Of a DNA stretch of 40,148 bases, positions 3,919-38,979 are shown in pieces. Made by a program: the position numbers and the translations under genes. The DNA is from Promethearchaeota archaeon (GTDB lineage Archaea; Asgardarchaeota; Lokiarchaeia; Sigyniarchaeales; SOKP01). The stretch's first letter is position 1; every line of letters begins with the position of its first letter. Location of the stretch: assembly GCA_016926735.1 (NCBI GenBank), contig JAFGOA010000107.1, forward strand, positions 1 through 40,148, given 5' to 3'. The notes under the pieces are model-generated. The model ran no database searches. It was not told where the DNA came from and worked only from the letters and a program-made list of their open reading frames with translations.

Positions 3919-3932
3919 CGTGAAAAAACGGA
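3919..3932 (+). repeat. Boundary site, degenerate type A
   Basis: CGTGAAAAAACGGA; left flank similar to that of the 24329 site. Confidence 0.65.
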
Positions 3933-4474
3933 CTTATATTGGGGGTTTCACGAACTTTTATAATTAATATCAATATCATTATTTTTTCCTTATATAGTAT
4001 AAATCTTATATTATTAGATTTGTTTAATAATAAATAACTCATTTGTTTTCCTATAGTACGAGTATAAGGTATACTCCATCATATTAAATTCTACTAAAGA
4101 AGTATATTAACTTCTTTAATATGATTTTTTATTTCAAATAATTCAAGATTAATATTTTCAGGTGTTATCTCTCTTCTTAATAATGAATATTCTTCTTTTA
4201 GATTGAAATTTTTTATATTTCTATAAAATCTTTTTTTTTTGAAATTTTCTCAATTTTTGTTGATTTATACTCTCAATTCCAATGTAAAGATTAATCTTAA
4301 AAACTTGAATTTTATAATAACCAAGTAATTCTTTTTTTAGCCCTTTTTTATTTATATTCTCTATTTTCACCTTCGATAGAATATTATCAAAATGAGAAAT
4401 TATATTTACATTTTGACAATAAATATTTAAGTAATAGTTTTACAATTATAGAATTATAAAAGACATAGGTTTTT

Positions 4475-5572
4475 ATCACGCCAGTAGAAGTTAATTTTAA
4501 TTTAGAGGATATTCGAAACATTGAGGATATAGCTAAAACCCAAATTCAAAAGTTTAATAATTTACGAGATTTAATTAAAGATTTAGTTTTTGTACCTACT
4601 GATCCTATTGGTCACTATTCTGCTATTACTTACAAATCTATTGATGGAGGTAAAATGGGTATTCATTTTGATCCTTTTGAGTTAGAATTCATTGTAATAA
4701 GTGATTCAAATGGATATGAAATAATGAAATTCATAGTTCCTAATAATGACAATTTAACTAAGAAAGATTTTAAATTTTTAGATAATTTCCATGAAATAAA
4801 TATACTTTCTTCAATTTTAAAGGTTAATTCTATTATAGAAGCTTCAGAAATTCTTAATAATCCTTATACAGCTATGGATCTAGCAGAATATGCTTGTATA
4901 TTTGAAAACTTAATGAAAGATAAAACTGAACCAAAATTATTTATGAAGGATGGTTTATTAAGATCAAAAGCTTTTAAACATGAATTAATGCAAAATTTAC
5001 TTGATATCTTAAAAGAATATCCTAAAAGAAAATTAGTCGGAGTAGCAAAAAGATCAAAAGTTTTAAGTCTTATTTCAACTGCTTTAAGGGTACAAAAAGT
5101 TTTTCCTCCTAATATGACAGGATATGTAGAAATTCCGTTAGATATTGAAAGAATGGCATATAAATGGACAGGAAAAGGAAAAATATCTAAAAATAATCAA
5201 GGACCATTGTCTTATGCTCTGGGTAAATTATATATTGTTAAATTATCAAAAAGAAATAATTTGTTACTAACAATAGAAATTCCTTATGATTATTTGAATA
5301 ATGAATCAATATATAATAATAAAGAAATAAATGAAATAATTGGCCATTTAATAAAAGATTCAATGATGTCTTATCCAATTTTAGGTTATCCGCAAACAAT
5401 AATGAGAGCACATGAAAAAGCAGTTAGATGTGGTTTTACAGGTTCTGTTTGGAAAGATAAAATAATAGAATATATTTTAAGTAATATTGGTGATAGAAGA
5501 TTATCAAAACTAATTAGAAATCAAATTTTTCTTCAAGAAATTGTTAATAAAGGAATTTTAGGAGGAATATAA
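4475..5572 (+). CDS. nurA: NurA-family 5'-3' nuclease, extended upstream of the called ATG at 4655
   Basis: Catalytic-type SIDGG lies in frame just upstream of 4655; MKDGLL, LVGVAKRS and LGYPQTIMRAHEKA motifs; frame open from 4469, proposed ATC start at 4475. Confidence 0.8.
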   Translation: MTPVEVNFNLEDIRNIEDIAKTQIQKFNNLRDLIKDLVFVPTDPIGHYSAITYKSIDGGKMGIHFDPFELEFIVISDSNGYEIMKFIVPNNDNLTKKDFKFLDNFHEINILSSILKVNSIIEASEILNNPYTAMDLAEYACIFENLMKDKTEPKLFMKDGLLRSKAFKHELMQNLLDILKEYPKRKLVGVAKRSKVLSLISTALRVQKVFPPNMTGYVEIPLDIERMAYKWTGKGKISKNNQGPLSYALGKLYIVKLSKRNNLLLTIEIPYDYLNNESIYNNKEINEIIGHLIKDSMMSYPILGYPQTIMRAHEKAVRCGFTGSVWKDKIIEYILSNIGDRRLSKLIRNQIFLQEIVNKGILGGI

Positions 5573-5573
5573 A

Positions 5574-7463
5574 ATGAGTGATCATAATGGTAATGTTGTG
5601 GGTTTATTTATTGGATTAAATAGTTCTTCATATGAATATATTGCAAGTATAATAGCTCCATATCAACAAGAATATGCTCCAATTGTCGGAGGATTTATGT
5701 TAATTGAAAGTATAAATGAATATTTAGTAGCAAGAATAATGGATTATGTGCCTAAAGGAGAATTTATGTCATCAATGGGAATAAAATGGCTTTCAGATGT
5801 AGCACTTTCTCCTGAATCAATAGGACAAGATATAAAAACCAGTAAAGTAAGTTATCAAGTAAAAATAAAATTATTAGGGCGTCTAGATAAAAATACTAAT
5901 GAATTCATACCTGGAATTAAAACCATACCACATATAACTAGTAAAGTTGTTCAACCAAAAAAAGAAATAATTGAGATGATATGTAATAAAGCATTAGAGG
6001 ATCAATCTGAAGGTATTGAAATTGGTGAATATTGGCAAAATAAAGACATAAAAATTCATTTTAATCTTGAAGATCTTGTTGGAAAAAGAACTTTTATATT
6101 TGCTCGTGCAGGTTACGGAAAAAGTAATTTAATGAAAGTTATATCTTCAAATTGGATAGATGATTTAGGATCTCTCATTATTTTTGATCCAGAAGGAGAA
6201 TATGCAGTTACAGATAACAAAGATAGACCAGGAATAATGGATAAAAAACCTGCAATTTTAGTAACAAATCGCAATGATGTAAACAAAAAAACTCGATTCA
6301 ATGTTTATAATAAACTTAAATTTGATTTAAGAAAATTTCCTCCCAATTTTATTATTCCAATACTTATTCCAGAAACAAAGCATGAAATGATATTCTTTCA
6401 AAAACTTATGGGGCTTCAACAGAATCCTTCGAACTGGTCGAGACTTGTTGATTATTTAGGAGAAAATCGATGGAGATCTGATCTGGCTGAAGTTGGGAGG
6501 ATTATTGATGTAGAACCAGGTGATTATCAAAATCTTAGACCTATCTTAAATAATCTTATTCATCCAATTGAACAACTACATGATTCTGAATCAAATTTAT
6601 TAGACATTTTAGAAGAAGGCGTGATACAGGATAGTATTATTATTATTGATATTTCATTACTTAATTCTAATACAGCACTTCAATTGAGTTCAACAATTAT
6701 AAGTCATTTTTTTAATAGAAATCAAATTAGATTTACAACAGGAGATAAGGAATTAGCAAAAGTAGTTTTTGTTGTTGAAGAAGCTCAATCAGTAATTGGT
6801 GGCAAAAAAAGTGTTTCAAAATTTGTAGAATTAGCAAAAGAGGGTAGAAAATATCAATTAGGAGCTATTTTTATTACTCAACAACCGGGAAGTATCTCGA
6901 AGGAAATATTAAGTCAAGGAGATAATTTTTTTGTTTTTCATTTACTTAGTAAATCCGATTTAATTACATTACAAAAATGTAATGCTCATTATTCTGATGA
7001 TATATTAACACAGATATTAAATGAGCCAATTAGGGGTAAATCATATATGTGGACATCAAATCAACCATTTGTTTTACCAATCCATATAAAGAATTTTGAA
7101 GATATCGCAAAAGCAAATAATTCTATGAAAATACAAGAAGAAAATAAGATATTAGATCAAATCCTTATGAGAATTGATAATTTAGGGGAAATTGAAGTAC
7201 AAATCTTTAGAAAGATGATAAATATTATTAATGACAATAATTGGGATATACAAAATCGAAGAGAAATTATGATGGATGATAATAAAAAAAAATTATGTCT
7301 TACACTTTTTAAATTATTAGATAATGAAGAAATAGAATATTTAAATCAACAAAATGGTCTAGCAAAAAATAGCGATACAAGTATTCCTTATTCTATAAGC
7401 TATAAGTATATTGGTATTCTTCATGAAAGAGCAAGGATTCATGCTAGTTCTATTGAGGAATAA
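5574..7463 (+). CDS. herA: HerA/FtsK-family ATPase/helicase (DUF87)
   Basis: ARAGYGKS Walker A, IIFDPEGEY, VVEEAQ Walker B, KEGRKY...ITQQP; coupled to nurA. Confidence 0.88.
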   Translation: MSDHNGNVVGLFIGLNSSSYEYIASIIAPYQQEYAPIVGGFMLIESINEYLVARIMDYVPKGEFMSSMGIKWLSDVALSPESIGQDIKTSKVSYQVKIKLLGRLDKNTNEFIPGIKTIPHITSKVVQPKKEIIEMICNKALEDQSEGIEIGEYWQNKDIKIHFNLEDLVGKRTFIFARAGYGKSNLMKVISSNWIDDLGSLIIFDPEGEYAVTDNKDRPGIMDKKPAILVTNRNDVNKKTRFNVYNKLKFDLRKFPPNFIIPILIPETKHEMIFFQKLMGLQQNPSNWSRLVDYLGENRWRSDLAEVGRIIDVEPGDYQNLRPILNNLIHPIEQLHDSESNLLDILEEGVIQDSIIIIDISLLNSNTALQLSSTIISHFFNRNQIRFTTGDKELAKVVFVVEEAQSVIGGKKSVSKFVELAKEGRKYQLGAIFITQQPGSISKEILSQGDNFFVFHLLSKSDLITLQKCNAHYSDDILTQILNEPIRGKSYMWTSNQPFVLPIHIKNFEDIAKANNSMKIQEENKILDQILMRIDNLGEIEVQIFRKMINIINDNNWDIQNRREIMMDDNKKKLCLTLFKLLDNEEIEYLNQQNGLAKNSDTSIPYSISYKYIGILHERARIHASSIEE

Positions 7464-7470
7464 AAAATAT

Positions 7471-8676
7471 CTAAATCCATAAACTATAATTTTCTTTTTT
7501 CCATTCCAAATATCTTTTATCTCTCTTGGTTCTAGGGATAATCCATCTTCTTTTCATGAATTCATTTATTTCTTCAATTGAAATATCATAATAATTAGGT
7601 TCTTCATTTTGAATTAATACTTGTTTATAATTTTTACATAGTGGAATAATAAATTGTTCACGATTTATATTATGTCTAAGAAAACTCTGTGGTTTCTCTA
7701 TTGATTTTAAAAATTTATGAATTACTTCTCTTTTATTTCTAAAACCAGATCCCCATTCTTTAATTTTTTGAGATGGAAGATAATATTTTGATACAAATGA
7801 AAAAATTTCATTATAGAGAGAACCATGAAATTGAAATTCACCATATCCATTTGAAAAACCACATTTTATAAATTTTTGACCATTAGGAAGTTTTATTCTA
7901 TCATATATTGAACTTTTGCCCAGAGCAGATAGAGTTGATATCATTATTAATTCACCCGTATTTTCTCTCTCTTTAATAAATGATTTTGTTCCTTGATATT
8001 TTTTTTTATAATCCTCCCTAATTTGATTGGAGAAGAGTAGAGAAGCAATTAATTTTCCCCCTAAAATCATATTATATGGTGGAACGGCTCCAATTAAGAA
8101 TCCATCCAATATCATATTAAGATTTTGTTGTTTATCTAGTTTTTTCCATCCAATATAGTTATCTCTTGATTTAATTGAAAATACAGGATCACAAAGACCT
8201 AAAATACCCATAATTTTGTTTGTTGTACTATCAAATATAAGATAGGTCAATCTTTTTCCATATCCACTAGATATTGGGATACTCCAATGAATTTTTATAT
8301 AATTAAATAAATTCCATAATTCGTGACGAGAATCAACGAGTATAATCTTAGGTTTTATTTTATTTGGTTTAATCTCATAACCATTAGCAATATATTCAAG
8401 TAATTTTTTTTCAATAGGTTTTAATTTCTTTTTATACTTTTTTCTCATTGCTTCAACAGCAACTTTATGAAGATTTCTTATATTATTTTTATTATTTTCA
8501 AATATTAATTGTTTATTTTCAATCCAAAATCCATTTCTATGAAAATATGGAAATATTTTTTGATCTAGTATGAATTTATCAAGACAATAATTAATTACAT
8601 TCTCATTTATTTTATCTAATATATTATTTTCATTATTATGATTTATATATTCACTGAAATTGATTTTTAAATCCAT
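7471..8676 (-). CDS. druA: Druantia DruA-like protein (DUF4338)
   Basis: WSIPISSGYGKRL.YLIFD...GILGL.DPVF...RD.YIGW and GAVPPYN.ILGGKLIA motifs typical of DruA. Confidence 0.75.
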   Translation of the reverse strand: MDLKINFSEYINHNNENNILDKINENVINYCLDKFILDQKIFPYFHRNGFWIENKQLIFENNKNNIRNLHKVAVEAMRKKYKKKLKPIEKKLLEYIANGYEIKPNKIKPKIILVDSRHELWNLFNYIKIHWSIPISSGYGKRLTYLIFDSTTNKIMGILGLCDPVFSIKSRDNYIGWKKLDKQQNLNMILDGFLIGAVPPYNMILGGKLIASLLFSNQIREDYKKKYQGTKSFIKERENTGELIMISTLSALGKSSIYDRIKLPNGQKFIKCGFSNGYGEFQFHGSLYNEIFSFVSKYYLPSQKIKEWGSGFRNKREVIHKFLKSIEKPQSFLRHNINREQFIIPLCKNYKQVLIQNEEPNYYDISIEEINEFMKRRWIIPRTKRDKRYLEWKKENYSLWI

Positions 8677-8891
8677 AAAATCTAATCCCTTTATGAAAAA
8701 TATTATTAAGTAATTATTTGTCTATTTTTAGAATAATAAGAATCTAAATTATTAATAGATTATTTGATCCTTACTTTTAGTATATCTTTATTATTCTAAA
8801 TTTTTTAATAAAAATGATTTAAACTATAAAATTTATGAAAATTATATTAATTTTACATCTCTTCTGTTTGAAAAGTTAAATATAATGGATT

Positions 8892-8905
8892 CGTAAAATA
8901 ACTCA
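8892..8905 (+). repeat. Boundary site, degenerate type A
   Basis: CGTAAAATAACTCA (2 mismatches). Confidence 0.45.
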
Positions 8906-8910
8906 TCTCT

Positions 8911-9286
8911 CTAACTTTGATTGACAAATACATCTGTAAACACTTGAAATTCATAATCATGATCATCAGTAAATATTTTTGCTTGATTCCATTCATATAA
9001 TATTTTCTTCTAACCATAAGGATGCATTATCTGGAGTCCATTCTTCAATTATTCCCTCTTTTCTTATATATTCGAGTTTTCTGCCTAATTCTTTACCAGT
9101 TACTGGAATTGATTGAGATAAGTATGATAATATATGTAGTTCATGCTCTAGTAATACCATTAAAGTATCTTAAAGAAATGATTCTCCTCCTCATGGATTC
9201 GAGTAGATTATTTCCCTTGATTCATGATTTGGATAATATTTAATAGCTATATTCTTCAGCTATTCCTTTTTAGATTACCTAACCAT
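8911..9286 (-). pseudogene. Degraded ORF of unknown function
   Basis: Protein-like segments (MVLLEHELHILSYLSQSIPVTGKELGRKLEYIRKEGIIEEW; YEWNQAKIFTDDHDYEFQ) broken by stops and a frameshift. Confidence 0.35.
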
Positions 9287-9820
9287 TATTTTAATAGAAA
9301 ATTCTGTTTTTTTATTACTAAAGAGAATACAACTAAAAAATTCATTTTTAAAGAATATTTACTGATATATATGAATTTTTTATAGTTTTTTTAGAATAAT
9401 AGGGAGAATTTTACTACTATTATTTTGCTGTAAAATATAAGTAGAGGATTTCTATTCTTATAATTTAATAGGATTAAAAATAACAAATAATTATTACAAA
9501 ATTATGCCTAATTAACCTATAATAGCTATATAGGAATAGGTATATAGTATATTATATATTCCTTTTAAGAGGCTCATGATATAATTTTCAATGAGGAACA
9601 TTTCTATTATCCGGATATCATAGGCATAAGTGTTATAAATTATTAATATATTGTAATGATAAATACTAAAATATAGCAATATCGATATAAGAACCATATT
9701 ATCTGTCTTTTTTCTTTATATTTTAGTGATATTAATTGATCCTATATTCTGGAATTTATCTTAAGTTTTATAAATAAGAATCTTGTTAATATATTTAAAA
9801 ATGATATTTTTGATATTTAT

Positions 9821-9834
9821 CGTTAAATAACTGA
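9821..9834 (+). repeat. Boundary site, degenerate type A
   Basis: CGTTAAATAACTGA. Confidence 0.75.
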
Positions 9835-10142
9835 ATATTTAATATTATAAGGATGCTTCATACAAAAAATTTTATTCTATTTTAATCTATAAGATTACGG
9901 CATAAATAATATTAATTTATGTGATTGAATTATAGAAACTGAAAAATTAAAAATATTACATATTAAGCTCAAAGGAATAATATCATCTCGATTTGAGATA
10001 ATTAAATCTATACTGGGTGTATAAAATGATGCTGAAGTTGTTAGATTTTTAATCCAAAGGTACTATAAAGAACATTTAGAAAGAGAAGAAAAGTCTGTAA
10101 GAGATGAACTAGAAAAAGATAGAAAAATTATTTCCAGATTTT
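9821..10142 (+). pseudogene. Decayed copy of the antitoxin module at 24900-25220
   Basis: Co-linear nucleotide similarity to 24900-25220 starting at the repeat site; ATG mutated to ATA, CAA mutated to TAA, doc toxin missing. Confidence 0.85.
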
Positions 10143-10148
10143 AGAAAT

Positions 10149-13646: not shown

Positions 13647-13660
13647 CTTGAAATAACTGC
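13647..13660 (+). repeat. Boundary site, degenerate type A
   Basis: AATCAT-CTTGAAATAACTGC between convergent genes. Confidence 0.65.
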
Positions 13661-25639: not shown

Positions 25640-25659
25640 TTAATTTTTATGTAAAATAT

Positions 25660-25673
25660 CGTGAAATAACTGA
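25660..25673 (+). repeat. Boundary site type A
   Basis: Exact CGTGAAATAACTGA. Confidence 0.9.
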
Positions 25674-27066: not shown

Positions 27067-27080
27067 CAATTATAGGACAC

Positions 27081-27302
27081 TAAGATTAATTCACTTAATT
27101 TATTTGTATATATAAGTTTCATTTGCAAATCCACAAGATAATTATCATCTTCATTTCGAAATAGATTACCATATATTTTTTCAACCTCTGAATCTTTAAG
27201 ATAAAATTTATCATGTACAAATTGATAATCGCATTCGGTTTTTAATAAATTAAACTGCTCAAGATATGATATTAGTTCTTTAAATAAATTTTCTTTTGAC
27301 AT
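27081..27302 (-). pseudogene. Small hypothetical gene whose 3' end is interrupted by the IS
   Basis: The called ORF runs into the IS right TIR; removing the IS continues the frame to a TGA at 25760-25762. Confidence 0.5.
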
Positions 27303-27413
27303 TTATATATTTTTAATGTATTTGATTTAAAACCTAGACAGAATAAAATGATAAAAATAAGAAATTGAATATCTAAAAATTATATAAGTATTATAAAGAA
27401 ATTAATATTTTAA

Positions 27414-27426
27414 CGTGAAACAGTTA
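27414..27426 (+). repeat. Boundary site type B
   Basis: CGTGAAACAGTTA. Confidence 0.85.
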
Positions 27427-27652
27427 GATAATAATTTATGAATTAAATTATATGATTTAAAAAAAATTACAAATTAATTACAGAAAAATATAAAAAATAT
27501 AGATATCTTGGCTCTATAATCTTTAATAGAAAACCCAAATATAATAAAGAATATCATTATTATGAAAAAGATCTTATGATATAGTTATCCCTTTATCAAG
27601 AATCACCATAATTGGATTCTTAACTATGTTTTTTTTTTTCAAATTTATATAA

Positions 27653-28441: not shown

Positions 28442-28633
28442 ATTTCCTCAACTCCGTCATTATAATATAGTTAAAATTAATATGTATTAATATTCTAATT
28501 AATTTTATTAAATATTTTCCTTAAATTAGAATTGTCACATTTAAAGCTAAAATATGAAAAAAAAAAATAAAAATAAATTCTTTTAGAATACCAAACCTTT
28601 AGATAATCATTTTTTGATATTAGAGAGTATCAT

Positions 28634-28647
28634 CGTGAAATAACTGA
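28634..28647 (+). repeat. Boundary site type A
   Basis: Exact CGTGAAATAACTGA. Confidence 0.9.
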
Positions 28648-28670
28648 GAAAGAATTTATAATTAATATCT

Positions 28671-29612
28671 TTAAACAATAAATTGACTAAAGATATAATC
28701 TTTAGGTGGGTCTATAGGTGTTTCACAATCACTACAAAGTGAATAACATTGTTTTAATTCTTCAGGAGATATTAAGTCAATTATATCTTTAAAAATCCGC
28801 ATACTTTTTAATTCGAACATTCCTGATTTTAATTTTGTTTTTGCAGTAAATATTATAAAACAATCCTGATGAATTGCATTATTAAGTAAATAATGGAACT
28901 TAATCAGTTCTGAATCAGGTTCTACATTCAAATTTCTTAGAGAATTAATATTAAAATCTTCATTAATAATTAGATCATTACCAAAGTAAGCAAACATCAT
29001 TATTGTACTATTATCAGGAGAAGTTTCTATAATTTTTAAGACATCACTTCTCAATGAAAGATAATCAGATTTAAGTAGTATTTTATTCTCTGAATATTTT
29101 TGATAAATATCATAAAGGTTTTTATTTTCTATTTCTCCCAATAATTTAAAATTGTCATCCCCTAAATAATTGTATATTAGGTCATAATAATCCACAGGAT
29201 CTCCCTCATCAATATTATATTTTTCAATCAAGAGTTTAAGATAATATTCAGCATATTTATTACCAAGAGATATAGGTTCAATATCTGATGTATCCGAATA
29301 TGTTAAATAATTCCAACCACATCCACTCCTATAACTAGCTTCTTTATTTCCATCATATTCTTTAAGAAAATCACCTACCTTTTTATATAAACTTATTAAA
29401 AAATATTTTGAAAATGGAATAAGCTCTCCAGAGTGATCATAGGGGTAATCATATCTGTGATCTATTATAAATTTAGGATTTTTTTCAATATACTCAACGA
29501 TTCTTTTAAAGATTTCTTTTTTCCATTTCTCATGAAGCTCTAATGAAATTTTATTATCTTCTATAAAATGTTGAATATCATTTTCCGTGAGAATTGATCC
29601 TTCTTTGATCAT
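28671..29612 (-). CDS. Hypothetical protein
   Basis: 313-aa ORF bounded by repeat sites; C-terminal CSDC. Confidence 0.7.
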   Translation of the reverse strand: MIKEGSILTENDIQHFIEDNKISLELHEKWKKEIFKRIVEYIEKNPKFIIDHRYDYPYDHSGELIPFSKYFLISLYKKVGDFLKEYDGNKEASYRSGCGWNYLTYSDTSDIEPISLGNKYAEYYLKLLIEKYNIDEGDPVDYYDLIYNYLGDDNFKLLGEIENKNLYDIYQKYSENKILLKSDYLSLRSDVLKIIETSPDNSTIMMFAYFGNDLIINEDFNINSLRNLNVEPDSELIKFHYLLNNAIHQDCFIIFTAKTKLKSGMFELKSMRIFKDIIDLISPEELKQCYSLCSDCETPIDPPKDYIFSQFIV

Positions 29613-29745
29613 TTTAATCAGAATTTAATTATTAAAGAAATTATTTTATTCATATATTTTAAAAATATACTCCTTGAACAATTAGTATTATACTATGATA
29701 AAATATGTATAGAATTCCTTTTCTCTTGATATTTAAGATAATGAT

Positions 29746-29759
29746 CGTGAAATAACTGA
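29746..29759 (+). repeat. Boundary site type A
   Basis: Exact CGTGAAATAACTGA. Confidence 0.9.
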
Positions 29760-29836
29760 CTATCATATTTTTATTATTTTATTGAATTATATACTCGAAA
29801 ACTTTAAATAATTCGAGTATTTATATTTTTAATAGA

Positions 29837-30088
29837 ATGACTATATCAGAAGAAAAAATGGTTTTAAAGGTTGGATCTAAAGGAGAAATCTTTCCTCCAA
29901 AAGAGATTAGAGAAAAATTAGGTTTAAAACCAAATCAACCGATTGTTATGACAATCCATCAAGATAAGTTAATAATTAGAAAATTATATTCTTTAGATGA
30001 AATATTAAAAACGCCTCCTAAAGTAAAAATAAGTTATCATGCTTGGAAACAATTTAAAGACGATTTAAATGAGGAATATGAAAAATGA
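29837..30088 (+). CDS. vapB: AbrB/MazE/SpoVT-family antitoxin
   Basis: KVGSKGEIFPPKEIREKLGLKP...LIIRK; overlaps the PIN gene. Confidence 0.85.
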   Translation: MTISEEKMVLKVGSKGEIFPPKEIREKLGLKPNQPIVMTIHQDKLIIRKLYSLDEILKTPPKVKISYHAWKQFKDDLNEEYEK

Positions 30089-30576
30089 AAATATTATTTG
30101 ATACTTCTTATCTTCTTCCTTTTATTAAAATTAAAATAGAATCTATATCTGACGATATTCTTCTAAATCTTCTCAATAATAAATCTAATGAATATTATTA
30201 CTCTGATTTATCATTATTTGAATTGACTGCAAAAGCTTTTAAGTTAATAGTAGATAATAATCAAATCAATTCACAAGATTTAATGATAGGAATAGATGCT
30301 ATACAAAATGATTCAAGATTACAATGTATTACATATATATATAATCCATTAATTATTGAATTAGCTATAGAATTCAAAAGAATTTACAATGATACTATTG
30401 ATTGTATTATTTTTGCATCAGCAATATGTAATTGTGATTGTATCATAACAATGGATCTCATATTTTATGAAAATATTAAAAATAATGATACCTTATTAGA
30501 AAAAATTCAATCAATTAATAAGAATTTTAAATTTTGGTTTAATGATCTTGTTAATTCCCAAGAATCTATAAATTAA
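30085..30576 (+). CDS. vapC: PIN-domain VapC toxin
   Basis: ILFDTSYL, SLFE, D.IDCII.ASA, IITMD. Confidence 0.85.
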   Translation: MKILFDTSYLLPFIKIKIESISDDILLNLLNNKSNEYYYSDLSLFELTAKAFKLIVDNNQINSQDLMIGIDAIQNDSRLQCITYIYNPLIIELAIEFKRIYNDTIDCIIFASAICNCDCIITMDLIFYENIKNNDTLLEKIQSINKNFKFWFNDLVNSQESIN

Positions 30577-30613
30577 TATTGCTGTAAATAATATATTTCT
30601 ATATATCTATCAA

Positions 30614-30626
30614 CGTGAAACAGTTA
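30614..30626 (+). repeat. Boundary site type B
   Basis: CGTGAAACAGTTA. Confidence 0.85.
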
Positions 30627-30730
30627 TCATAATAAAAATATAATATATTTTGTCTAAAATTAGTCTAAATTCTATTTAAATAATAAGATTTACATAATAA
30701 TCTTAAAATATATCCTTAAAAGAGAATTTA

Positions 30731-30964
30731 ATAACAATTTTTATCAAAATAAAAGATGGGTCCGAATTTAAAATAGATTGTGATGAGATTAAAAGAGTAA
30801 TTAATAATAAAAAATATTTAGAGATTATGTTTAAAAAAGAGATGATTAAATTTGAAAAGGATCAGTTGGATTCTTTTGAAATTACATTTCCAAAAGATAT
30901 TAAAAATAGTGACCCTAATGCATATGAAACTCGTTTAATAGTAATTCTTTCGAATATAATTTAA
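30731..30964 (+). CDS. About 77-aa hypothetical protein, possible ATA start
   Basis: Open frame 30707-30964 (ITIFIKIKDGSEFKIDCDEIK...) filling the gap between two repeat sites. Confidence 0.45.
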   Translation: MTIFIKIKDGSEFKIDCDEIKRVINNKKYLEIMFKKEMIKFEKDQLDSFEITFPKDIKNSDPNAYETRLIVILSNII

Positions 30965-31002
30965 GATATTGAAATATTATTTTTATAACTTAGATATATC
31001 AT

Positions 31003-31016
31003 CGTGAAATAACTGA
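31003..31016 (+). repeat. Boundary site type A
   Basis: Exact CGTGAAATAACTGA. Confidence 0.9.
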
Positions 31017-31126
31017 GAACTACGGAAATACATCTTAAACTATATTAAAATCTCTATATCTAATAAAATAAGTTGTATAAATGATAATTATTAGGATTTA
31101 GTAAAAAAAAAAAGAATTTAATAAAA

Positions 31127-31285
31127 TTATTCTTCATATATTATAGTAAATCTTATACCTCTTGCTCCAGCTGATGATTGAGCTATTCGAATTTTATCAA
31201 TCACAAGATTAGATCCTTGAAAAAAGGAGTTTAATTCTCGTTGAACATCATCTTTAAAGCCTTTAAATATTATCGCTTTTAGCAT
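31127..31285 (-). CDS. 52-aa protein, loosely Cse60/DUF2758-like
   Basis: AAGGTGA SD; MLKAIIFKGFKDDVQRELNSFF...IIYEE. Confidence 0.65.
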   Translation of the reverse strand: MLKAIIFKGFKDDVQRELNSFFQGSNLVIDKIRIAQSSAGARGIRFTIIYEE

Positions 31286-31371
31286 TATTTATATCACCTT
31301 TTAGAATATTTCTTCATATATTTGCATTTATATAATTATTATTTAAAATATATTCGAAAAAATTCTATTGA

Positions 31372-31437
31372 TATATAAAAGTTTGAGGTGTAGTTTTCAA
31401 ACTATTTTTTTCTTCCATCAAATACGTGAAGCAGTTA
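31372..31437 (+). repeat. About 65-bp direct repeat, copy 1, ending in a type B site
   Basis: Near-identical to 38915-38979; CGTGAAGCAGTTA at 31425 overlaps the DUF5615 stop codon. Confidence 0.9.
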
Positions 31438-31794
31438 TTCATTTAAAATATCTTTTCTAATTCTTATTTGATTAATTTCTACTATCAAGATTTTACCAAT
31501 AACTTTATTTAATTTAAAACTTTCCATAAATTCTTTAAAAAGAGATTTTACTGCATTTTTACCTTGACCTTTAGGTCGAAGAATTATAATTCCATAAAAA
31601 TTATCATTGATATTCGCAAAATCATAATCGAGAGTAATTAATATTCTATTTTCTTTAAAGCAAATTTGATTTAAAGATTTATCATCAATTCCTGTGATAT
31701 TTTCATGATAAACAGAATCTACTTGATGTTCTTCTATTTCTTCAATAACTTTTTTAAGAATCCAAGGAGTATTTTCATCTAATTTAAATTTCAC
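31435..31794 (-). CDS. DUF5615 PIN-like toxin
   Basis: MKFKLDEN, RILITLDYDF; paired with DUF433. Confidence 0.85.
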   Translation of the reverse strand: MKFKLDENTPWILKKVIEEIEEHQVDSVYHENITGIDDKSLNQICFKENRILITLDYDFANINDNFYGIIILRPKGQGKNAVKSLFKEFMESFKLNKVIGKILIVEINQIRIRKDILNE

Positions 31795-32044
31795 TTTGTT
31801 GCTCCTGAACTTTTGTTATTGATATAATTTCTTCTCTTGCTAATACAGCACCATATTGAAGGGCAATTTGGATATGTTCTTTTTTTAAACTTGGGTAATT
31901 TTCAAGTATTTCTCCTTCATTCATTCCTTCAGCTAAACAGTCCAAGATAACTGAAACCATTACCCTTGTTCCTTTAATATGTGCCTTTCCATGACAAATA
32001 TTTGGATTGAAGGAGATATATTCTTTCCAATTTAATTGAACCAT
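31784..32044 (-). CDS. DUF433 antitoxin
   Basis: PNICHGKAHIKGTRV.V..IL..LAEG....EIL..YPSL. Confidence 0.9.
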   Translation of the reverse strand: MVQLNWKEYISFNPNICHGKAHIKGTRVMVSVILDCLAEGMNEGEILENYPSLKKEHIQIALQYGAVLAREEIISITKVQEQQSEI

Positions 32045-32121
32045 GATTATTATATAGAAATAAATGTAAATTAATTTTTAGTTTTTTCAAAATACCATTA
32101 AATGATATTATAGATAATCAT

Positions 32122-32135
32122 CGTGAAATAACTGA
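32122..32135 (+). repeat. Boundary site type A
   Basis: Exact CGTGAAATAACTGA. Confidence 0.9.
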
Positions 32136-32243
32136 ATTATATATACTGGAAATTTAAGAAAAATAGAGAGAAGAAAACTTATTTTAAATTGTGATTTTTT
32201 TTTTTGAAACTAAAGGATGATATCTGGATTATTATTCATTATA

Positions 32244-32726
32244 TCATTGTTCATTTTTCACAATTTTATCAAGCTTATGTTTAATTACAAAATCAATTAA
32301 GAATTTTTCTATATCTTCAGGACCATCACAGAAAAGTTCACTAGAGTCATTCATTATTTTTTTTTGCATCTGTGTTAATTGTCGTAATTGTTCTTGACGT
32401 TTTTTTCTATTTTCATTTGGACCAGTTTCTCCAAAAAATCGATTTATTTCTTCCATCATTTTAGTTAAAGTTTTTGATCCAACAATTTTTAAATATTCAG
32501 GAATTAGAAAGGCTGAATTTCCGGTAGAATTCCAATAATATTGTTCTAATCCTCCGTTTCCAACTTCATAAGAGAATATCATTAGATCGACAAATATTTT
32601 TTCTTCTTGTGAAAAATTATCCCATGCAATCATTTCTTCTTTTTTCATCATTTTCATATACAACTTATCAAGATTCACCATAATTGTAAATAAGAAGAAA
32701 TTATTTATTTTTCCTTTGATAAGCAT
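32244..32726 (-). CDS. DUF4375/DMP19-family protein
   Basis: EVGNGGLEQYYWNSTG motif; true start may be a downstream Met. Confidence 0.75.
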   Translation of the reverse strand: MLIKGKINNFFLFTIMVNLDKLYMKMMKKEEMIAWDNFSQEEKIFVDLMIFSYEVGNGGLEQYYWNSTGNSAFLIPEYLKIVGSKTLTKMMEEINRFFGETGPNENRKKRQEQLRQLTQMQKKIMNDSSELFCDGPEDIEKFLIDFVIKHKLDKIVKNEQ

Positions 32727-32773
32727 TATTTTACAGATTATAAAAATATAAAAATAAAAAAAAGATTGATATG

Positions 32774-35700
32774 TTATAATTCCGCAGGAAATTTATCAAT
32801 TAATCCCACATAATATTGAGCAATAAATAGAGAATCTAATGTATTTATCAGTCCATCACCATTAACGTCTGCAGCTTCAGGAAAGAAGCCCTCTGGATTC
32901 AATCCTACAAAATATTGAGTTGTGAGTGTGGCATCTAAGGCATTAATTAATCCATCATTATTTACATCACCAAGGGTGATATTAGGATGAACGATTACAT
33001 GACTGTTTATACCAACAGGATTATCTATAGTATCTGTCATTTCATTTGCTAAAGTTAGTATATCTATTGCTAACACACATTCACCTACTCCAATCGTCTC
33101 CCAGGTTATGATGAGAAAATCTAAATTTGGACTTGGAAATGGACCTAATGCATCAAATCCACTCACTCGAGCTACTCCTTCTGAATTATTGATATCAATA
33201 GAACTTATAAATCCATCAGGTCCAGCAATAATATCTACTATCCTTAGTATAGTAGGATTAAAAGTAAATTCAAATCCATATGCAGCAACTCTATGACGTC
33301 CTGAATCTATATATACATGAGTATCAAAGATATCTCCTACTTTTTTATCTGCTACAGAACTGATGCTCACATTTCTCATGGGAATAGGAGTTGTTTTTAC
33401 ATGGCTATTTATGATATAAGTAGTCTCTATAGGTTCTCCAGAATCGTCTATTAAAGAAATTTTATCAAAAGTTATTGCACTTTCACCTACTCCAATTGCT
33501 TTCCAAGATATTGAGAAAAGGAACAGGTTTAAACCAGGGTCTATCCATGACTCAGTATATCCAGCTACTTTTATCCATCCTTCTGAATCATGTTTCTCCA
33601 CAGATGTTATAAATCCAGCTTGTGCACTATAAAAATTCGTTGGAACAACGATATTGGGATCAAAAGTAATGTTAAAATAATATCCAGTTAATTTCTGACT
33701 TCTTGAATCGACATTAACACTTGTAGAGAATGTATCTCCCACATACTTATCCGTAACAGAACTTATCCTGACATCACCATGTACTGTTATATTGCAATTT
33801 ATACCATTAGGAGTACCTATAGTATTTGTGGAAATATCTGCTAAAGTTATTATATCTATTTCAACCATACTTTTCCCTACAGAAATTGCCTTCCATGAGA
33901 TTGTTAGAAAGTCTAAGATTGCACTTGGAAATGGGCCTAATGCATCAAATCCACTCACTCGAGCTACTCCTTCTGAATTATCAATATCAATAGAACTTAT
34001 AAATCCATCTGGTCCAGCAGTAATATCTACTATCCTCAAGATTTTAGGATTAAAATGAAATTCAAATCTATATGCTCCAACTCTCTGAAGTCCTGAATCT
34101 ATATACACATGAGTATCAAATATATCTCCCACAAGCTTATCCGTAGTAGACCCTATCATCACACTTCCAGGTGTCCCCATAATTGGATTAGAATTGATAT
34201 GGATATTATTATCCTCATTAATCTCCAATACATCATTGTAGCAGTCTACATGACACATTAATTTATAGTATCCAGAGGGTAAGGTTATTGTCCCATTACA
34301 GTTTATAGATTTTATTTCGTTATGGTTTAATCCATCAATATAACATGTACCGAGCTCATAAACTTCCTCATTACTTACCGCAGTATATTTGACATAAAAT
34401 CCATTTGCAGTTCCATATCCAAAATTACCGATATTAGCCCATAGATCATAAGAAAAACTGATTTCATCACTTCCAGAGAAAACATTACTAAAATCACATA
34501 AAATATCATCTATAGAATAAAAGTCCGGCAAGTATTTTTGTTTGGTAAGATTTAAAGGATAATACATGATATTATTGTCTTCATTTAGTTCAATAACTCG
34601 ATCATGATAATCTATAACACACATTATTTCATACTCTCCAAATGGTAATGTAATTCGCCCTTCTTCAGTCGAAGATTTTATCTCAAATTTATCTAATCCA
34701 TTAAAACAATCATCCCCCAGATAATATGTATTATCACCTTTAACTGCAATAAAATCAATAGAAAATAGTTCATTAGTTGAAAACCCAAAATTAGAGATGA
34801 TCGTTGATATCTTATAAGTGAAACTTATCTCATCTCCTTCTTCCAAGAAAATATCACTTAATTCACAATCAAGTCTCAAAGGAATAAAGTTTGGTGCATA
34901 TTCTTCTCTCAAAAGTATTACATGATTATTGTTAGTATGGACATTATTATTTTCATTCGATTCAGTTACCTCATTAGCATAATCTATAGTACATATTAAT
35001 TCATATTCCCCAAATGGAACGGTTCTATAGCATCCTCTTATATTATTAATATATTTTACTTCATTTTGGTCCAATCCCCCCACATAACCATAACCTCCTA
35101 GACTATAAACACCTTCATCACTTTTCAAATCATATTGAATCCAAAAGTCTTCTGAAGTTTCACATCCATAATTTTTAACATAAGATGAGATATTATAAGA
35201 GAATTCTATTTCACCATCAATTGTTATACTTGTATCACTTATTATAAGTTCAACATCACTGTAAGGCATAATATCCGGTAGCAAAATATCTTCGGAAACT
35301 ACAAAAGGATAAGAATCACAATAATAATTATTATCATCATCCACTTCATTAATGCTATTATCATAATCTACAGAACAAGCTATTTCATATTGCCCAAATG
35401 GTAAGGTTATTTGTCCTCGACAAGTTGCTAATTTTAGTTCATTAGGATTTAAACCCTCCATATAATATTCTCCTAATACATATATACTATCACTAGTTTT
35501 TATTTCTCCTAATTCATATGGACTTTCACTACTTTTTACTTCTCCTAATTCATATGAACTTTCAATACTTTTTGCTAGATATCGAATATAAAATCCCTCT
35601 GAAGTACCTACCAGTCCTTTATTAAATATCTCAGAGGATATCTCATAATCAAATGTTAATTCATTATCTCTAAAGATAATATTACTTTTTGTAATTTCAA

Positions 35701-38700
35701 TATCATGTGAAATAAGATCTGGAGAAAAATACTCCTCTCTAAGAATTAAAGGATTAGGATTGGTGTGAATATTATTAACCTCCGTCATTTCATACACTTC
35801 ATTATAACAATCTATAGACTGCCCTAATTTATATTCCCCTAATGGTAAGGTTTTTTTTCCTTCACACACTATATTTTTCTGTTTACCACGGTTTAACCCA
35901 TTTATATAGCAGATTCCTAGATCATAAGTTGTATCATTGCTTATTGCTGTATATTGAACAGAAAAACCTGCTGCATCTCTTCCTCCTTGATTATAAACAC
36001 TAGACGATAAACGATAAGAAAACGATACATTATCACCTTCAATAAGAACTTCGCTTAGAGCAATTTCAACTTCATTATTGTTAGATAAAAATGTTAAATC
36101 GACTGGTTCAGATTCTTGTATAATTACAGCAGTAGGATCTCCAAAAAGATTTAAACACGCGCACGCGTGTTCCATGCTTGGATCACCCACTAACCAATTT
36201 GGTTTTTGAAGTATAAAATCCTTTTTTGCATCTAGCAATGCTTTACCAATTTTAAGTATACCCTCTCCAAATTGAGCATCATAAAATTCACGTCTCAAAA
36301 GACAACTCGCAAAATTTGTATTTTCTCCATTATATTCTACCATACCTGTGCTTCCAATAACAGCAAATGCTGCATTTGGAGAAGATAAATATCTACCTCC
36401 AATAGAATATCCCGGATAAGCAAAAACATCACATCCATCAGTATAGAGAAAAAAAGGTTTAGAATTTGCTAGACGATCTATATCATCAGGATATAATAAT
36501 CTCATATTGTACCACCTATTACTATGACCTACATGAGTTATAATATGAATATTATTATTTATTATAGGTATGAGATCTTCTTTATTCCACATAGATTCTC
36601 GATCATAAAGAGTTGTTATATTGTAATATTGATCAAATTGCCGTGTAGTGTAACCATGACTAAGACAAAAACCATTTGTTTCATTATTATAAATTAATTC
36701 ATCTAATTCATAACTACCCCAATATGGGATGCCCTCAAAAGTACCCCCATATTCACCTACTATTAAAACACTATATAAATAATCATCATCTCTACTTTCC
36801 ATTTCCAACTCATGGAGAATTGTTTTTCTTATGAAGTTTGAAAGCTCCTCTTCTGTATCAACAGGAGCTCTTCCTACTGCGACTTCTGTGTAACTATCAT
36901 GGGTAAAAAAAAATCTCCAATTGTCTCTATCGTCTTTAAATTCACCATAGTTCCCATCATAATCAGCATCCCAAGAACCATCTAAGTAAGCGTAATATAG
37001 ATCCGTATAAGTAAATACTTCATCTATGTAAAACATCCTCATAGGTACCTCATTTTCATCCCCTATTATAAAGACATACTCGGTACACCAAGAATAATAG
37101 GCATCTTTTATAAACTCTCTTATTTTTTCTTCTTCGTCCCTAAAATATTTATATTCTGCGTAAATTTCCTCAATAGTTATAATTATAGGATTATATCCTT
37201 GAAAAGATTTATACTCAATTAAATCTTGTAAAGTATATGGTCCATTGGAATATTTTAAGAATTTATTAGTAATAATTACATAGTCATGTGGCCCTTGATC
37301 TTTATCAAAAATACTCTGTTGTGGTCTAATAATTACCATTGGATCTCCAAACACTTCATAACCTAAAAAATCTTCAACAAGACGATAAGAAGTATCATAT
37401 GATTTTAAGACATCATATTTTGCGTCGGTTAATGCCCTACTAATCTCATCTATACCCTCTCCGAATATAGCATCATAGAATTCACGATATAACTTCTGCC
37501 CTGGAATATCTGTAGGATCATCTGGCGTATAAGTAGGAAAACTCCATGCATATTCTGAAGTTCCAATTGCAGCAAATGCTCCATTTGGAGAAGTTATTAG
37601 ACGCTCTCCTATAGAATCATATGTAAAATGGAATCCATTAGCATTGTGAATATAATTCTGGTCAATCTCATCAGCATAATTAAAGGCATAACTTTGATAG
37701 CTATATAGAAAGAATGGTTTCTTGACGTTTATATATGGAATATCATTTATATTCAGTTTCATCATATTATCATGTAGGCTATTAAGTTCATCTTCCCAAT
37801 AAACATAACCTGGTCCATATCCATCTTCAGTCGCAGTACAAAATGACGTCTCTGGACGTCCAAAATGATTTAGTATATGCACCCCATTGTTGCTCTCAAT
37901 AATATCTAATAAAGCATATGGAGTCCACGTTTTAACATAGGGATAATTGTAATTTGAGCGTTCATAAAGAGTCTTAAAGGTATACTCATTAGAAATCTTC
38001 CTTGTTTGATACCCATTAGCAGAACAATACTCATATCCATTATACATATATAATTGGTCCAAATAATCACCACCGTATACTGCTATTGGATCACCAGGAT
38101 CAGAACCCGGATCTAGTTGGTATCCATAAAATTCACCTACCATCAAACCATTATATAGATAATTAGTATTGTAATTTCTTAATTCTTGTTCATGAGCGAG
38201 GGTTTTTCTCACGAAATTTGAAACCTCCACTACTGAACCAACAGGGGCTCTCCCAAGATAGACATCAGCATGATAACCCCAAATCGCTTGGTTCCGTAGT
38301 ATCTCCCAATCCTCTACCTCACCATATACACGATTATTATTATCATCCCAATCATTATTTATAGTTGCATAATATTGATCTGAATAATAAGTTACATCAT
38401 CTGGACCCCATTCTTGCCCTGGTGGAGGGTCACCTCCTGAACAAAAATACCTTGGAGGGATAATATTTGAATCTCCTCCTAAAAGTACATATTGAAGGCC
38501 CCAACCAAAATACTTATCTACTATAAATGCTCGTATTTTTTCTGCATAATCTCTCCCATCATAACGGGAATATATCTCTTCAACAGTCACTATTGTTGCG
38601 CTAATACCTTGTGCAATTTTACTGTCAATAAGAGTATGAAATGAATATGCTCCATTATAATCTTTTAGGTCCTTATTAGTAATAATAGCATATGTAAAAA

Positions 38701-38851
38701 GTTGAAGGGGATCATCAAAAGAAAATATTTTAGGCTCTTTAAAAATTACTTTATCTTGTCCATTAGGAATAACCATCTCTAATAAAAACGCCGAGGAAGA
38801 TATAACTAAAAAAAAAGTTAAAAATATTCCAATCTTTGTTTGTTTTTTCAT
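32774..38851 (-). CDS. Secreted or anchored protein: two peptidase C25 (gingipain) domains, four CARDB-like repeats, three cohesins, one dockerin
   Basis: N-terminal hydrophobic helix; YVLLGGD/GRAPV/FGDP motifs twice; D..N.V.E.NE.NN repeats; cohesin repeats; GDVNNDG.IN.LDA...ADVNGDG dockerin. Confidence 0.85.
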   Translation of the reverse strand: MKKQTKIGIFLTFFLVISSSAFLLEMVIPNGQDKVIFKEPKIFSFDDPLQLFTYAIITNKDLKDYNGAYSFHTLIDSKIAQGISATIVTVEEIYSRYDGRDYAEKIRAFIVDKYFGWGLQYVLLGGDSNIIPPRYFCSGGDPPPGQEWGPDDVTYYSDQYYATINNDWDDNNNRVYGEVEDWEILRNQAIWGYHADVYLGRAPVGSVVEVSNFVRKTLAHEQELRNYNTNYLYNGLMVGEFYGYQLDPGSDPGDPIAVYGGDYLDQLYMYNGYEYCSANGYQTRKISNEYTFKTLYERSNYNYPYVKTWTPYALLDIIESNNGVHILNHFGRPETSFCTATEDGYGPGYVYWEDELNSLHDNMMKLNINDIPYINVKKPFFLYSYQSYAFNYADEIDQNYIHNANGFHFTYDSIGERLITSPNGAFAAIGTSEYAWSFPTYTPDDPTDIPGQKLYREFYDAIFGEGIDEISRALTDAKYDVLKSYDTSYRLVEDFLGYEVFGDPMVIIRPQQSIFDKDQGPHDYVIITNKFLKYSNGPYTLQDLIEYKSFQGYNPIIITIEEIYAEYKYFRDEEEKIREFIKDAYYSWCTEYVFIIGDENEVPMRMFYIDEVFTYTDLYYAYLDGSWDADYDGNYGEFKDDRDNWRFFFTHDSYTEVAVGRAPVDTEEELSNFIRKTILHELEMESRDDDYLYSVLIVGEYGGTFEGIPYWGSYELDELIYNNETNGFCLSHGYTTRQFDQYYNITTLYDRESMWNKEDLIPIINNNIHIITHVGHSNRWYNMRLLYPDDIDRLANSKPFFLYTDGCDVFAYPGYSIGGRYLSSPNAAFAVIGSTGMVEYNGENTNFASCLLRREFYDAQFGEGILKIGKALLDAKKDFILQKPNWLVGDPSMEHACACLNLFGDPTAVIIQESEPVDLTFLSNNNEVEIALSEVLIEGDNVSFSYRLSSSVYNQGGRDAAGFSVQYTAISNDTTYDLGICYINGLNRGKQKNIVCEGKKTLPLGEYKLGQSIDCYNEVYEMTEVNNIHTNPNPLILREEYFSPDLISHDIEITKSNIIFRDNELTFDYEISSEIFNKGLVGTSEGFYIRYLAKSIESSYELGEVKSSESPYELGEIKTSDSIYVLGEYYMEGLNPNELKLATCRGQITLPFGQYEIACSVDYDNSINEVDDDNNYYCDSYPFVVSEDILLPDIMPYSDVELIISDTSITIDGEIEFSYNISSYVKNYGCETSEDFWIQYDLKSDEGVYSLGGYGYVGGLDQNEVKYINNIRGCYRTVPFGEYELICTIDYANEVTESNENNNVHTNNNHVILLREEYAPNFIPLRLDCELSDIFLEEGDEISFTYKISTIISNFGFSTNELFSIDFIAVKGDNTYYLGDDCFNGLDKFEIKSSTEEGRITLPFGEYEIMCVIDYHDRVIELNEDNNIMYYPLNLTKQKYLPDFYSIDDILCDFSNVFSGSDEISFSYDLWANIGNFGYGTANGFYVKYTAVSNEEVYELGTCYIDGLNHNEIKSINCNGTITLPSGYYKLMCHVDCYNDVLEINEDNNIHINSNPIMGTPGSVMIGSTTDKLVGDIFDTHVYIDSGLQRVGAYRFEFHFNPKILRIVDITAGPDGFISSIDIDNSEGVARVSGFDALGPFPSAILDFLTISWKAISVGKSMVEIDIITLADISTNTIGTPNGINCNITVHGDVRISSVTDKYVGDTFSTSVNVDSRSQKLTGYYFNITFDPNIVVPTNFYSAQAGFITSVEKHDSEGWIKVAGYTESWIDPGLNLFLFSISWKAIGVGESAITFDKISLIDDSGEPIETTYIINSHVKTTPIPMRNVSISSVADKKVGDIFDTHVYIDSGRHRVAAYGFEFTFNPTILRIVDIIAGPDGFISSIDINNSEGVARVSGFDALGPFPSPNLDFLIITWETIGVGECVLAIDILTLANEMTDTIDNPVGINSHVIVHPNITLGDVNNDGLINALDATLTTQYFVGLNPEGFFPEAADVNGDGLINTLDSLFIAQYYVGLIDKFPAEL

Positions 38852-38914
38852 TTTTTTAATTTTTAATATTGAATTATTAGATATATACAAAATTAATTAT
38901 AGGAATATTTTCAC

Positions 38915-38979
38915 TATATAAAGTGTTGAGGTGTAGTTTTCGAACTATTTTTTCTTCCATCAAATACGTGAAACAGTTG
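38915..38979 (+). repeat. About 65-bp direct repeat, copy 2, ending in a type B site
   Basis: CGTGAAACAGTTG at 38967. Confidence 0.9.

Follow-up and report, generated by a model that had tools for sequence, protein, structure and literature searches.

What marks the boundaries of the genes in a cassette array of an archaeon, and which enzyme could move them? This question is raised by the window analysed here, which is the whole of contig C147 (JAFGOA010000107.1, 40,148 nt) of a Promethearchaeota archaeon assembly (GCA_016926735.1; 3.88 Mb, 238 contigs, 26.2% G+C; G000 below). A preliminary description, made from the sequence of the window alone, had noticed a short motif recurring at gene boundaries and had taken the region for an integron-like platform of gene capture and shuffling, in a probable Asgard archaeon, with the recombinase acting from outside the window. 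The close relatives of G000 are indeed Promethearchaeota / Promethearchaeia, and our analysis supports a capture and shuffling platform. We consider it likely that the window holds a cassette platform of the tyrosine-recombinase type, with one-armed sites of a 7-6-7 core; that the XerA protein of the host runs it in trans has about even odds. Beyond the preliminary description, we report the 7-6-7 half-site anatomy, a class of sites with inverted spacers, other spacers across the family, and XerA as the sole tyrosine recombinase of the genome.

Anatomy of the sites

The exact 14-mer CGTGAAATAACTGA occurs eight times in the window (21572-21585, 24329-24342, 24900-24913, 25660-25673, 28634-28647, 29746-29759, 31003-31016 and 32122-32135), each time on the plus strand, between genes and at a gene boundary, just as first described; 100 dinucleotide-preserving shuffles, which supplied the chance expectation, contained no copy. 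When up to three mismatches were allowed, the window gave 14 matches against 4.74 +/- 2.38 expected. Twelve of these are on the plus strand, and the two on the minus strand (26507 and 34854, three mismatches each) look like chance.

A sequence on contig C222 of the same genome, CGTGAAATAACTGTTTCACG, reveals what the motif is. It contains a full palindrome with the spacer TAACTG (C222:22794), of which the 14-mer represents the left arm and the 6-bp spacer. The 14-mer is a half-site, arm CGTGAAA plus spacer TAACTG (and a following A), of the 20-base 7-6-7 core CGTGAAA-N6-TTTCACG, a layout known from the sites of tyrosine recombinases.

Two types of site share one strand: A sites, in which the arm is followed by TAACTG, and B sites, in which it is followed by the reverse complement, CAGTTA. 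This distinction sorts out the variants that had been listed alongside the exact copies. Those at 27414-27427 (CGTGAAACAGTTAG), 30614-30627 (CGTGAAACAGTTAT), 31425-31438 (CGTGAAGCAGTTAT, with G at arm base 7) and 38967-38980 (CGTGAAACAGTTGC, spacer CAGTTG), all on the plus strand, belong to the second type and are not decayed copies, because their spacer is the reverse complement. A loose-pattern scan of the genome for the arm followed by CAGTT returned only these four sites and the C222 palindrome. True variants of the 14-mer, also on the plus strand, are four decayed A sites: at 3919 (CGTGAAAAAACGGA), facing an inverted arm of another spacer class on the minus strand (CGTGAAACCCCCA, 3940-3952) in a pair that spans 3919-3952; at 8892-8905, with two mismatches; at 9821-9834, with one mismatch and followed by a degenerate copy of a Phd/Doc cassette; and at 13647-13660, with two mismatches. 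The last two listed variants are weak, B-like sites on the plus strand. The one at 22636-22649 (TGTGAAACAATTAG) is insignificant on its own, and the one at 23976-23989 (CGTGAAATGGTTAT) has a flank resembling that of 30614 (78% over 45 nt; repeat family D16). About 50 nt to the left of site 31425 recur at 38967 (repeat family D18).

All 12 clear sites (eight A and four B, between 21.5 and 39 kb) are intergenic by the coordinates of the open reading frames (ORFs), on the plus strand and at gene boundaries, in a region whose coding fraction is about 79% by the sum of ORF coordinates; site 31425 overlaps a DUF5615 stop codon by 4 nt. Reading the motif as coding sequence (...DPRE(I/T)...) was rejected, the frames being full of stops, and a C/D-box small RNA, a tRNA fragment or another RNA was set aside as well, with no Rfam match in the window. 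The site is not an attC hairpin either, as had been stated: single-strand folds of four site regions gave z = +1.42, +0.41, -0.39 and -0.42.

Across the 3.88 Mb genome there are 12 exact copies of the 14-mer, eight in the window, three on the minus strand of C222 and one on C25. The motif is confined to variable regions on three contigs and is not scattered genome-wide. The two-armed pattern GTGAAA-N6-TTTCAC occurs eight times in G000, each time with a different spacer. Changing the spacing to N3, N4, N5, N7, N10 or N11 gave no match, N8 gave one and N9 two; with at least 13 of the 14 arm bases matched, there were 11 sites at N6 against zero or one at each other spacing. The eight spacers are rich in G+C (23 of 48 bases, 48%, against 0.262 for the genome, p = 0.001; their flanks have 0.17). 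Spacers that are both unique and GC-rich suggest that the identity of the spacer is important, as in the overlap region of tyrosine-recombinase sites; in the middle of a protein operator they would be unexpected.

One-armed copies exist for further spacers as well. TGGGGG has half-site arrays on C112, C56 and C168 and an inverted copy at window position 3940; GGACAG has a half-site array on C85 and is also present on C133. About ten sites carry two direct repeats just outside the arm, (T)CATGGAAAA and TTTTAATGGAAAAT, and most A sites are flanked by AGATAATCAT-like sequence. A third flavour is seen on C24, C41, C167, C1, C153 and C15 of G000, where the arm is preceded by TCATGAA-N5-TCATGAATAAAGAT, that is, by two direct TCATGAA repeats, and where the spacers are CAACTC, CATGTG and CAACTG. 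This arm may belong to a different family of cassettes or elements. The site loci are flanked by housekeeping-type genes, for example thioredoxin reductase and acyltransferase, and their contigs are apparently chromosomal. Several contigs (C30, C38, C43, C55 and C85) terminate 1-6 kb from a full site, and the assembly tends to break at the variable regions that hold sites.

Distribution of the sites

The 14-mer is specific to the genus. All three congeners of G000 have it (one, nine and four copies), whereas of 57 other relatives only 4 have it, once each, which is near our rough chance estimate. A 19-mer used to scan metagenomes retrieved 16 stretches, four from relatives (L044, L045, L047 and L052) and 12 from unrelated organisms (GC 0.32-0.45), in which the motif apparently lies inside coding sequence.

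The arms reach much further. GTGAAA-N6-TTTCAC was found in 46 of 61 relatives, among them 31 of the 36 members of the family other than G000, with up to 14 copies per genome, and the reversed control pattern gave zero or one. Sampling of the phylum found the 20-bp palindrome in 36 of 151 genomes and its reversed control in one. By family, the counts were 23/25 in f1, the family of G000, then 1/2 in f2, 2/2 in f9, 4/4 in f20, 3/5 in f21, 1/26 in f12, 1/19 in f17 and none in the others. By these counts, the arms are much older than the genus-specific 14-mer, and the site platform appears to be widespread in one Loki-type Asgard family. The full sites do not always come with arrays: in G019, of genus g6, nine full sites stand alone, with no half-site array within about 10 kb of any of them.

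Evidence for DNA exchange at the sites

The evidence for exchange is comparative and non-experimental. Homology breaks inside sites at six junctions that we mapped base by base, both between genomes and between copies within G000, and relatives differ in cassette content with breakpoints inside the sites, in keeping with the gain and loss that had been expected there.

Two of these junctions come from likenesses within the window. The stretch 3853-3932 matches the left flank of site 24329 (24263-24342, 84%) as far as the final base of the site and no further; the right flank of site 24900 (24895-25194) is matched by 9816-10115 (87%), and there the likeness starts at the arm. Between the shared flanks lie 5.9 kb with NurA, HerA and DruA genes at one locus and 0.55 kb with the gene of a 132-aa protein at the other, and when set against the 24329-24900 locus, window 3919-9821 behaves like a single large cassette.

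Longer repeats that include sites, such as the 300-nt pair (87%) and the 80-nt pair (84%), might also be expected if the repeats bounded a miniature transposable element, or had been left by one duplicated region, and had no present function. The same could be said of a conserved unit of about 130 nt, from an A site to a B site, that is found at several cassette boundaries in the congener G002 and once in the window, where site 25660 opens it and an insertion sequence (IS) has cut it. We nevertheless find this explanation barely credible. All A sites are direct rather than inverted, so there is no terminal-inverted-repeat structure; the flanks of most sites are unrelated beyond about 25-40 nt; and the core palindrome recurs in 23 of the 25 family genomes, always with new spacers.

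Comparison with the congener G003 supplied a deletion. Its contig C55 is 97.4% identical to window 27085-28650 and then jumps to 30976-31116, so that it lacks the 2.37 kb between the A sites 28634 and 31003, which form the left and right breakpoints; the crossover lies within 23 nt common to both. The metagenome contig L052 carries the PIN toxin-antitoxin (TA) cassette of C222 (95.9%), but each side has a different neighbour: to the left comes the flank of window site 28634 and to the right C125-like sequence, and both switches are at sites. Few cassettes of the window have any homologue in the three congeners. Two contigs from sequencing runs offer only a hint of exchange: one, from run X2, follows the window to 30626 and continues with 164 nt unlike it, and another, from run X3, departs from the window at 30997, just before site 31003.

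One pair of loci gives both an empty and an occupied site. The empty site, on G003:C485, reads CGTGAAA TTAATC TTTCACG, and its flanks match G000:C55 at 94.3% and 95.7%. On the occupied G000:C55 the same flanks are 5.26 kb apart, and on the plus strand the two junctions read CGTGAAA GATTCA TATTACA, with one arm, and repeat-repeat-AGTGAAA GATTAA TTTCACG, a full site. Within the insert are genes for a GTPase fragment, a dockerin protein and a GH10-CBM3-dockerin enzyme, but none for a recombinase. By its junction sequences, the pair follows the attB to attL plus attR pattern of site-specific integration, and it shows the strong arm and the accessory repeats to be part of the cassette. Taken with the other junctions, the coincidence of cassette boundaries with sites is well supported by these alignments.

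The same comparisons bear on a further rival explanation, in which a conserved transcription factor would use the sites as its operators or promoter modules and the insertions and deletions would arise by homologous recombination or slippage between short repeats. A palindrome of two 7-bp half-sites could bind a dimeric factor; in the minus-strand direction, a TATA-like TAATAT(C)A block comes 8-10 nt after some A sites, with a gene 78-134 nt away; and the G003:C55 deletion falls between identical 23-nt repeats. An operator would hardly account, however, for spacers that are exact within a class and GC-rich and unique between classes, for the confinement of the motif to variable regions on three contigs, or for the hybrid attL/attR-type junctions of the empty/occupied pair. 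Genus g6 has five full sites with identical spacers in two species, G019 and G026, and four of the five pairs lack flank homology, while the fifth has a shared block 2 kb off on one side; there is no fixed position upstream of conserved genes. In the window, sites 13647, 24329 and 31003 lie between convergent gene ends. Site 25660, which had been counted with them, is not strictly convergent, since what comes next is an IS1-like insertion, also on the plus strand. We therefore regard the operator explanation as very unlikely, and the preliminary description was right to argue against a transcription-factor box.

The candidate enzyme

No recombinase was found within the window, as had been foreseen, where the only mobility gene is an IS1-like DDE transposase. 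A PF00589 search of G000 returned one gene, on contig C228, adjoining orc1/cdc6. Its 307-aa product scores 240 bits on NF040815 recomb_XerA_Arch (cut-off 220), which identifies it as XerA, and fails TIGR02249 integrase_gron with 85.6 bits (cut-off 265). IS110 and Y1-HUH genes were not found in G000, and its three serine recombinases are of the IS607 type, one of them beside a TnpB gene. We rejected these three classes as the cassette enzyme, since they are absent or part of IS607 elements. With XerA the sole tyrosine recombinase and the other recombinase classes absent or of IS607 type, XerA acting in trans becomes by elimination the most likely enzyme, an assignment to which we give about even odds.

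Orthologues of XerA (68-97% identity) are present in 25 of 25 family genomes. Among 61 relatives, 52 had a match to the XerA query (E <= 1e-5), and in 44 of the 52 XerA was the sole match. In families without a XerA relative the palindrome is almost never present. Three of the 13 family genomes with listed site positions, each from a different genus, have a full site 1.6-3.9 kb upstream of xerA: L121 (G013:C35) at 4407, L122 (G007:C126) at 4147 and L123 (G168:C6) at 3791. In all three, the site is at the edge of a conserved trxB-like / xerA / orc1-cdc6 block, each time with a different spacer.

At a stricter threshold (E <= 1e-10), many Asgard families had no match to the XerA query or few (f8 0/4, f10 1/13, f12 2/26, f13 0/5, f24 0/6). 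Such families may resolve chromosome dimers by another route, or the query may be too distant from them.

A proposed mechanism and the evidence against it

We suggest that small units without a recombinase, made up of a single gene, a TA pair or several genes, would carry one strong arm with a conserved accessory flank, either the two direct repeats or the AGATAATCAT-like sequence described above. Such units would integrate, presumably as circles, into a full palindrome with the same spacer. Each integration would create a new full site at one end of the unit and a one-armed junction at the opposite end, and serial insertion would therefore yield an array of co-oriented half-sites, although the order of insertion is our supposition. 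Two direct half-sites could recombine to delete a cassette, and B sites, with their inverted spacers, should support inversion; formally, A with A would give deletion or insertion, and A with B would give inversion with one full and one armless site. Different GC-rich spacers would act as separate addresses, so that one enzyme might serve many loci without scrambling the chromosome. We extend this to Loki-type Asgard archaea at large only tentatively, as something a little short of probable: their XerA, a housekeeping resolvase of chromosome dimers and in most cases the sole tyrosine recombinase of the genome, would double as the integrase of genome-wide gene capture, with dozens of cargo-only cassettes bearing one-armed sites and accessory repeats, and with 8-14 palindromic landing sites per genome told apart only by their 6-bp spacers.

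Several observations weigh against a platform run by XerA. The role of the enzyme comes from elimination and from a co-distribution that is confounded with phylogeny, and this co-distribution is permissive rather than proof, because families f17 and f27 have XerA relatives (36-39% identity) yet show the palindrome in 1 of 26 genomes. G000 itself has no full site near xerA. In the array sites of the window only a single arm can be recognised, an unusual feature among Xer substrates. Two facts are not predicted by simple serial integration: the spacer of the full site on C222 runs opposite to those of its three neighbouring half-sites, and A and B sites combine a common arm polarity with opposite spacers. 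The G003:C55 deletion is formally explicable by recombination between the 23-nt direct repeats. In L045, homology to the Doc cassette (97.3%) is lost 12 nt short of the arm of site 25660, with no site at that point, and in the congener G001 a homologue of the MazE/PIN pair (81%) lies between sites of other spacer classes, with homology that excludes the arms. Finally, no circle, excision or inversion product was seen in the short assembled contigs from Logan, whose listed joints have sides of 20-23 nt (one of 77), none of them at a site, and are uninformative on circles and inversions. An inverted isomer was not found in G003:C55, in the metagenome stretches or in the short read-derived contigs, and we found no convincing candidate for the armless TAACTG partner sites expected under the inversion model.

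Some of these points would suit the same cassette system run by a dedicated recombinase that has escaped recognition, be it a divergent tyrosine recombinase, a new family, or the product of an unassembled or extrachromosomal element, with XerA uninvolved. One-armed sites with accessory direct repeats are more typical of dedicated integrase systems; the lack of a site near xerA in G000 and the XerA-bearing families without the palindrome point the same way; and in an assembly of 238 contigs many arrays stop at contig ends. A dedicated enzyme fits poorly, on the other hand, with the single PF00589 match and the lack of the other recombinase classes outside IS607 elements. An all-against-all BLAST of the ORFs within 8 kb of nine full sites revealed no common gene family. 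Moreover, the arm is kept across the family and beyond, which suits a conserved housekeeping protein. We thus think a dedicated recombinase unlikely, and continue to favour a platform served by XerA.

Comparison with known systems

The system that appears nearest in its working is that of the Acinetobacter dif modules (pdif, dependent on XerC/XerD). As characterized in the portion of PMC13141974 available to us, these are small modules, often TA pairs, bounded by Xer sites; the 6-bp spacers of the sites are diverse, and rearrangement takes place between sites whose spacers are identical. The likenesses to that account are several: small modules with a TA pair, a single ORF or no ORF between sites with 6-bp spacers; spacers that are diverse and GC-rich; alternating orientation of sites; and breakpoints within sites of the same spacer (here in the window, G003:C55, L052 and the G000:C55/G003:C485 pair). 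According to the same portion of the paper, the housekeeping Xer of the host acts on dif modules in trans, a role that XerA would play here. Full sites consist of two arms and a 6-bp spacer as in pdif, whereas the array sites of the window keep one arm. The host here is an archaeon with a single XerA rather than XerC and XerD, the conserved arms are about 7-9 bp instead of 11, the cassette arms carry accessory direct repeats, and there are many apparently chromosomal loci in place of Acinetobacter Rep_3 plasmids. The archaeal dif site is 11-6-11, as given in the part of PMC2958812 that we could consult.

Like integrons, the window has a co-oriented array of promoter-poor or mostly single-gene cassettes with interspersed TA pairs, each bounded by a site, and serial insertion at one privileged site would be a further likeness. 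The primary-type site with two direct repeats recalls, as we take it, the DR1/DR2 repeats of attI. Unlike integrons, this system has no IntI and no integrase gene beside the array, no attC hairpin (the A-to-B unit of G002, folded as an attC-like hairpin, gave z = -0.48), and many arrays per genome, each with its own spacer. Integrons of archaea are treated by Ghaly et al. 2022 (PMC9668308, seen in part).

Two other kinds of system are comparable. Integrative mobile elements exploiting Xer (IMEX), such as the CTX and TLC phages and the gonococcal genetic island, are also close analogues; they lack a recombinase and use the single chromosomal dif. The insert of the G000:C55/G003:C485 pair is likewise recombinase-less, at an Xer-type site, with one good and one defective junction; it differs in that each genome offers 8-14 target sites with different spacers and that cassettes stack into arrays. 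In shufflons, the Rci recombinase inverts segments among sfx sites, and the segments are alternative C-termini. Shufflon sites also have one conserved arm and a spacer with the second arm not conserved, and sites with inverted spacers on one segment. In contrast, there is no Rci-type gene here (no second tyrosine recombinase), the segments are whole genes, and insertion and deletion are documented while inversion is undocumented.

We found no description of the site in the literature on Asgard integrons and attC, site-specific recombination, XerA or Lokiarchaeal hypervariable regions; PMC11529989, in the part available to us, describes other elements.

Cargo and neighbouring genes

The cassette array between the clear sites extends from 21586 to 38966. 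In order, its cargo comprises 288-aa and 339-aa Zn-ribbon proteins, a 58-aa protein, a 132-aa protein, a Phd-like/Doc(Fic) TA pair (25011-25639, plus strand), a 79-aa protein, a 131-aa membrane protein, a 313-aa protein, a MazE/PIN TA pair (29837-30576, plus strand), an interval without an ORF (30628-31002), a 52-aa protein, a DUF433/DUF5615 TA pair and, last, a DMP19-like protein together with a C25 peptidase of 2038 aa that also bears CARDB, cohesin and dockerin domains. The preliminary description had assigned one gene or one TA pair to nearly every interval, with two TA pairs inverted. By ORF content this is mostly so, with a two-gene unit and the ORF-less interval in addition, and the inverted pairs are the Phd-like/Doc and MazE/PIN pairs.

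The 2038-aa protein (32774-38890, minus strand) is of secreted type, with two C25 (gingipain-like) domains, CARDB repeats, cohesins and a C-terminal dockerin. Together with the dockerin, CBM3 and GH10 cargo of the G000:C55 insert, it hints at a cellulosome-like surface system carried on cassettes.

An IS1-like insertion sequence occupies 25781-27085 on the plus strand, with 43-nt inverted ends (repeat I5), a helix-turn-helix ORF and a DDE_Tnp_IS1 ORF that are probably joined by a frameshift. It interrupts the A-to-B inter-cassette unit and is no part of the cassette system. G001 has several full or partial copies of this element and many short matches to its ends.

The left 20 kb of the window hold McrBC, NurA/HerA, DruA and glycan genes. 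Of these, a defence-type cluster covers 3-3179 and 4655-8676, with a McrB-like AAA_5 protein and McrC, then NurA-like and HerA-like proteins, and DruA (Druantia) on the opposite strand. A 378-aa protein (20331-21467, minus strand) begins with a zinc ribbon and contains a repeat of about 100 aa (repeat family D6) three times over; two of these copies match the GIY-YIG nuclease domain.

Significance

Integrons and dif modules are well-known gene-capture platforms of bacteria, and to our knowledge only canonical integrons have been reported from archaea. The platform proposed here differs from those known in its 7-6-7 core, its one-armed cassette sites, the lack of a dedicated integrase and the number of loci in each genome that can be addressed separately. 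The cassette boundaries stand more firmly than the candidate enzyme or the proposed role of the inverted-spacer sites. As boundary marks, the sites give the exact limits of accessory and defence genes in Asgard genomes and explain why assemblies break at such islands, and they are a candidate set of orthogonal recombination sites from which genetic tools might be made for organisms still lacking them.

If the proposed mechanism is true, it would be a natural counterpart of recombinase-mediated cassette exchange with heterospecific sites, and defence and accessory islands would be built and reshuffled without a dedicated mobile-element enzyme. The Loki-type lineage is the one closest to eukaryote ancestry. 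If XerA runs the system, a housekeeping enzyme would have been recruited there for horizontal gene uptake in archaea.

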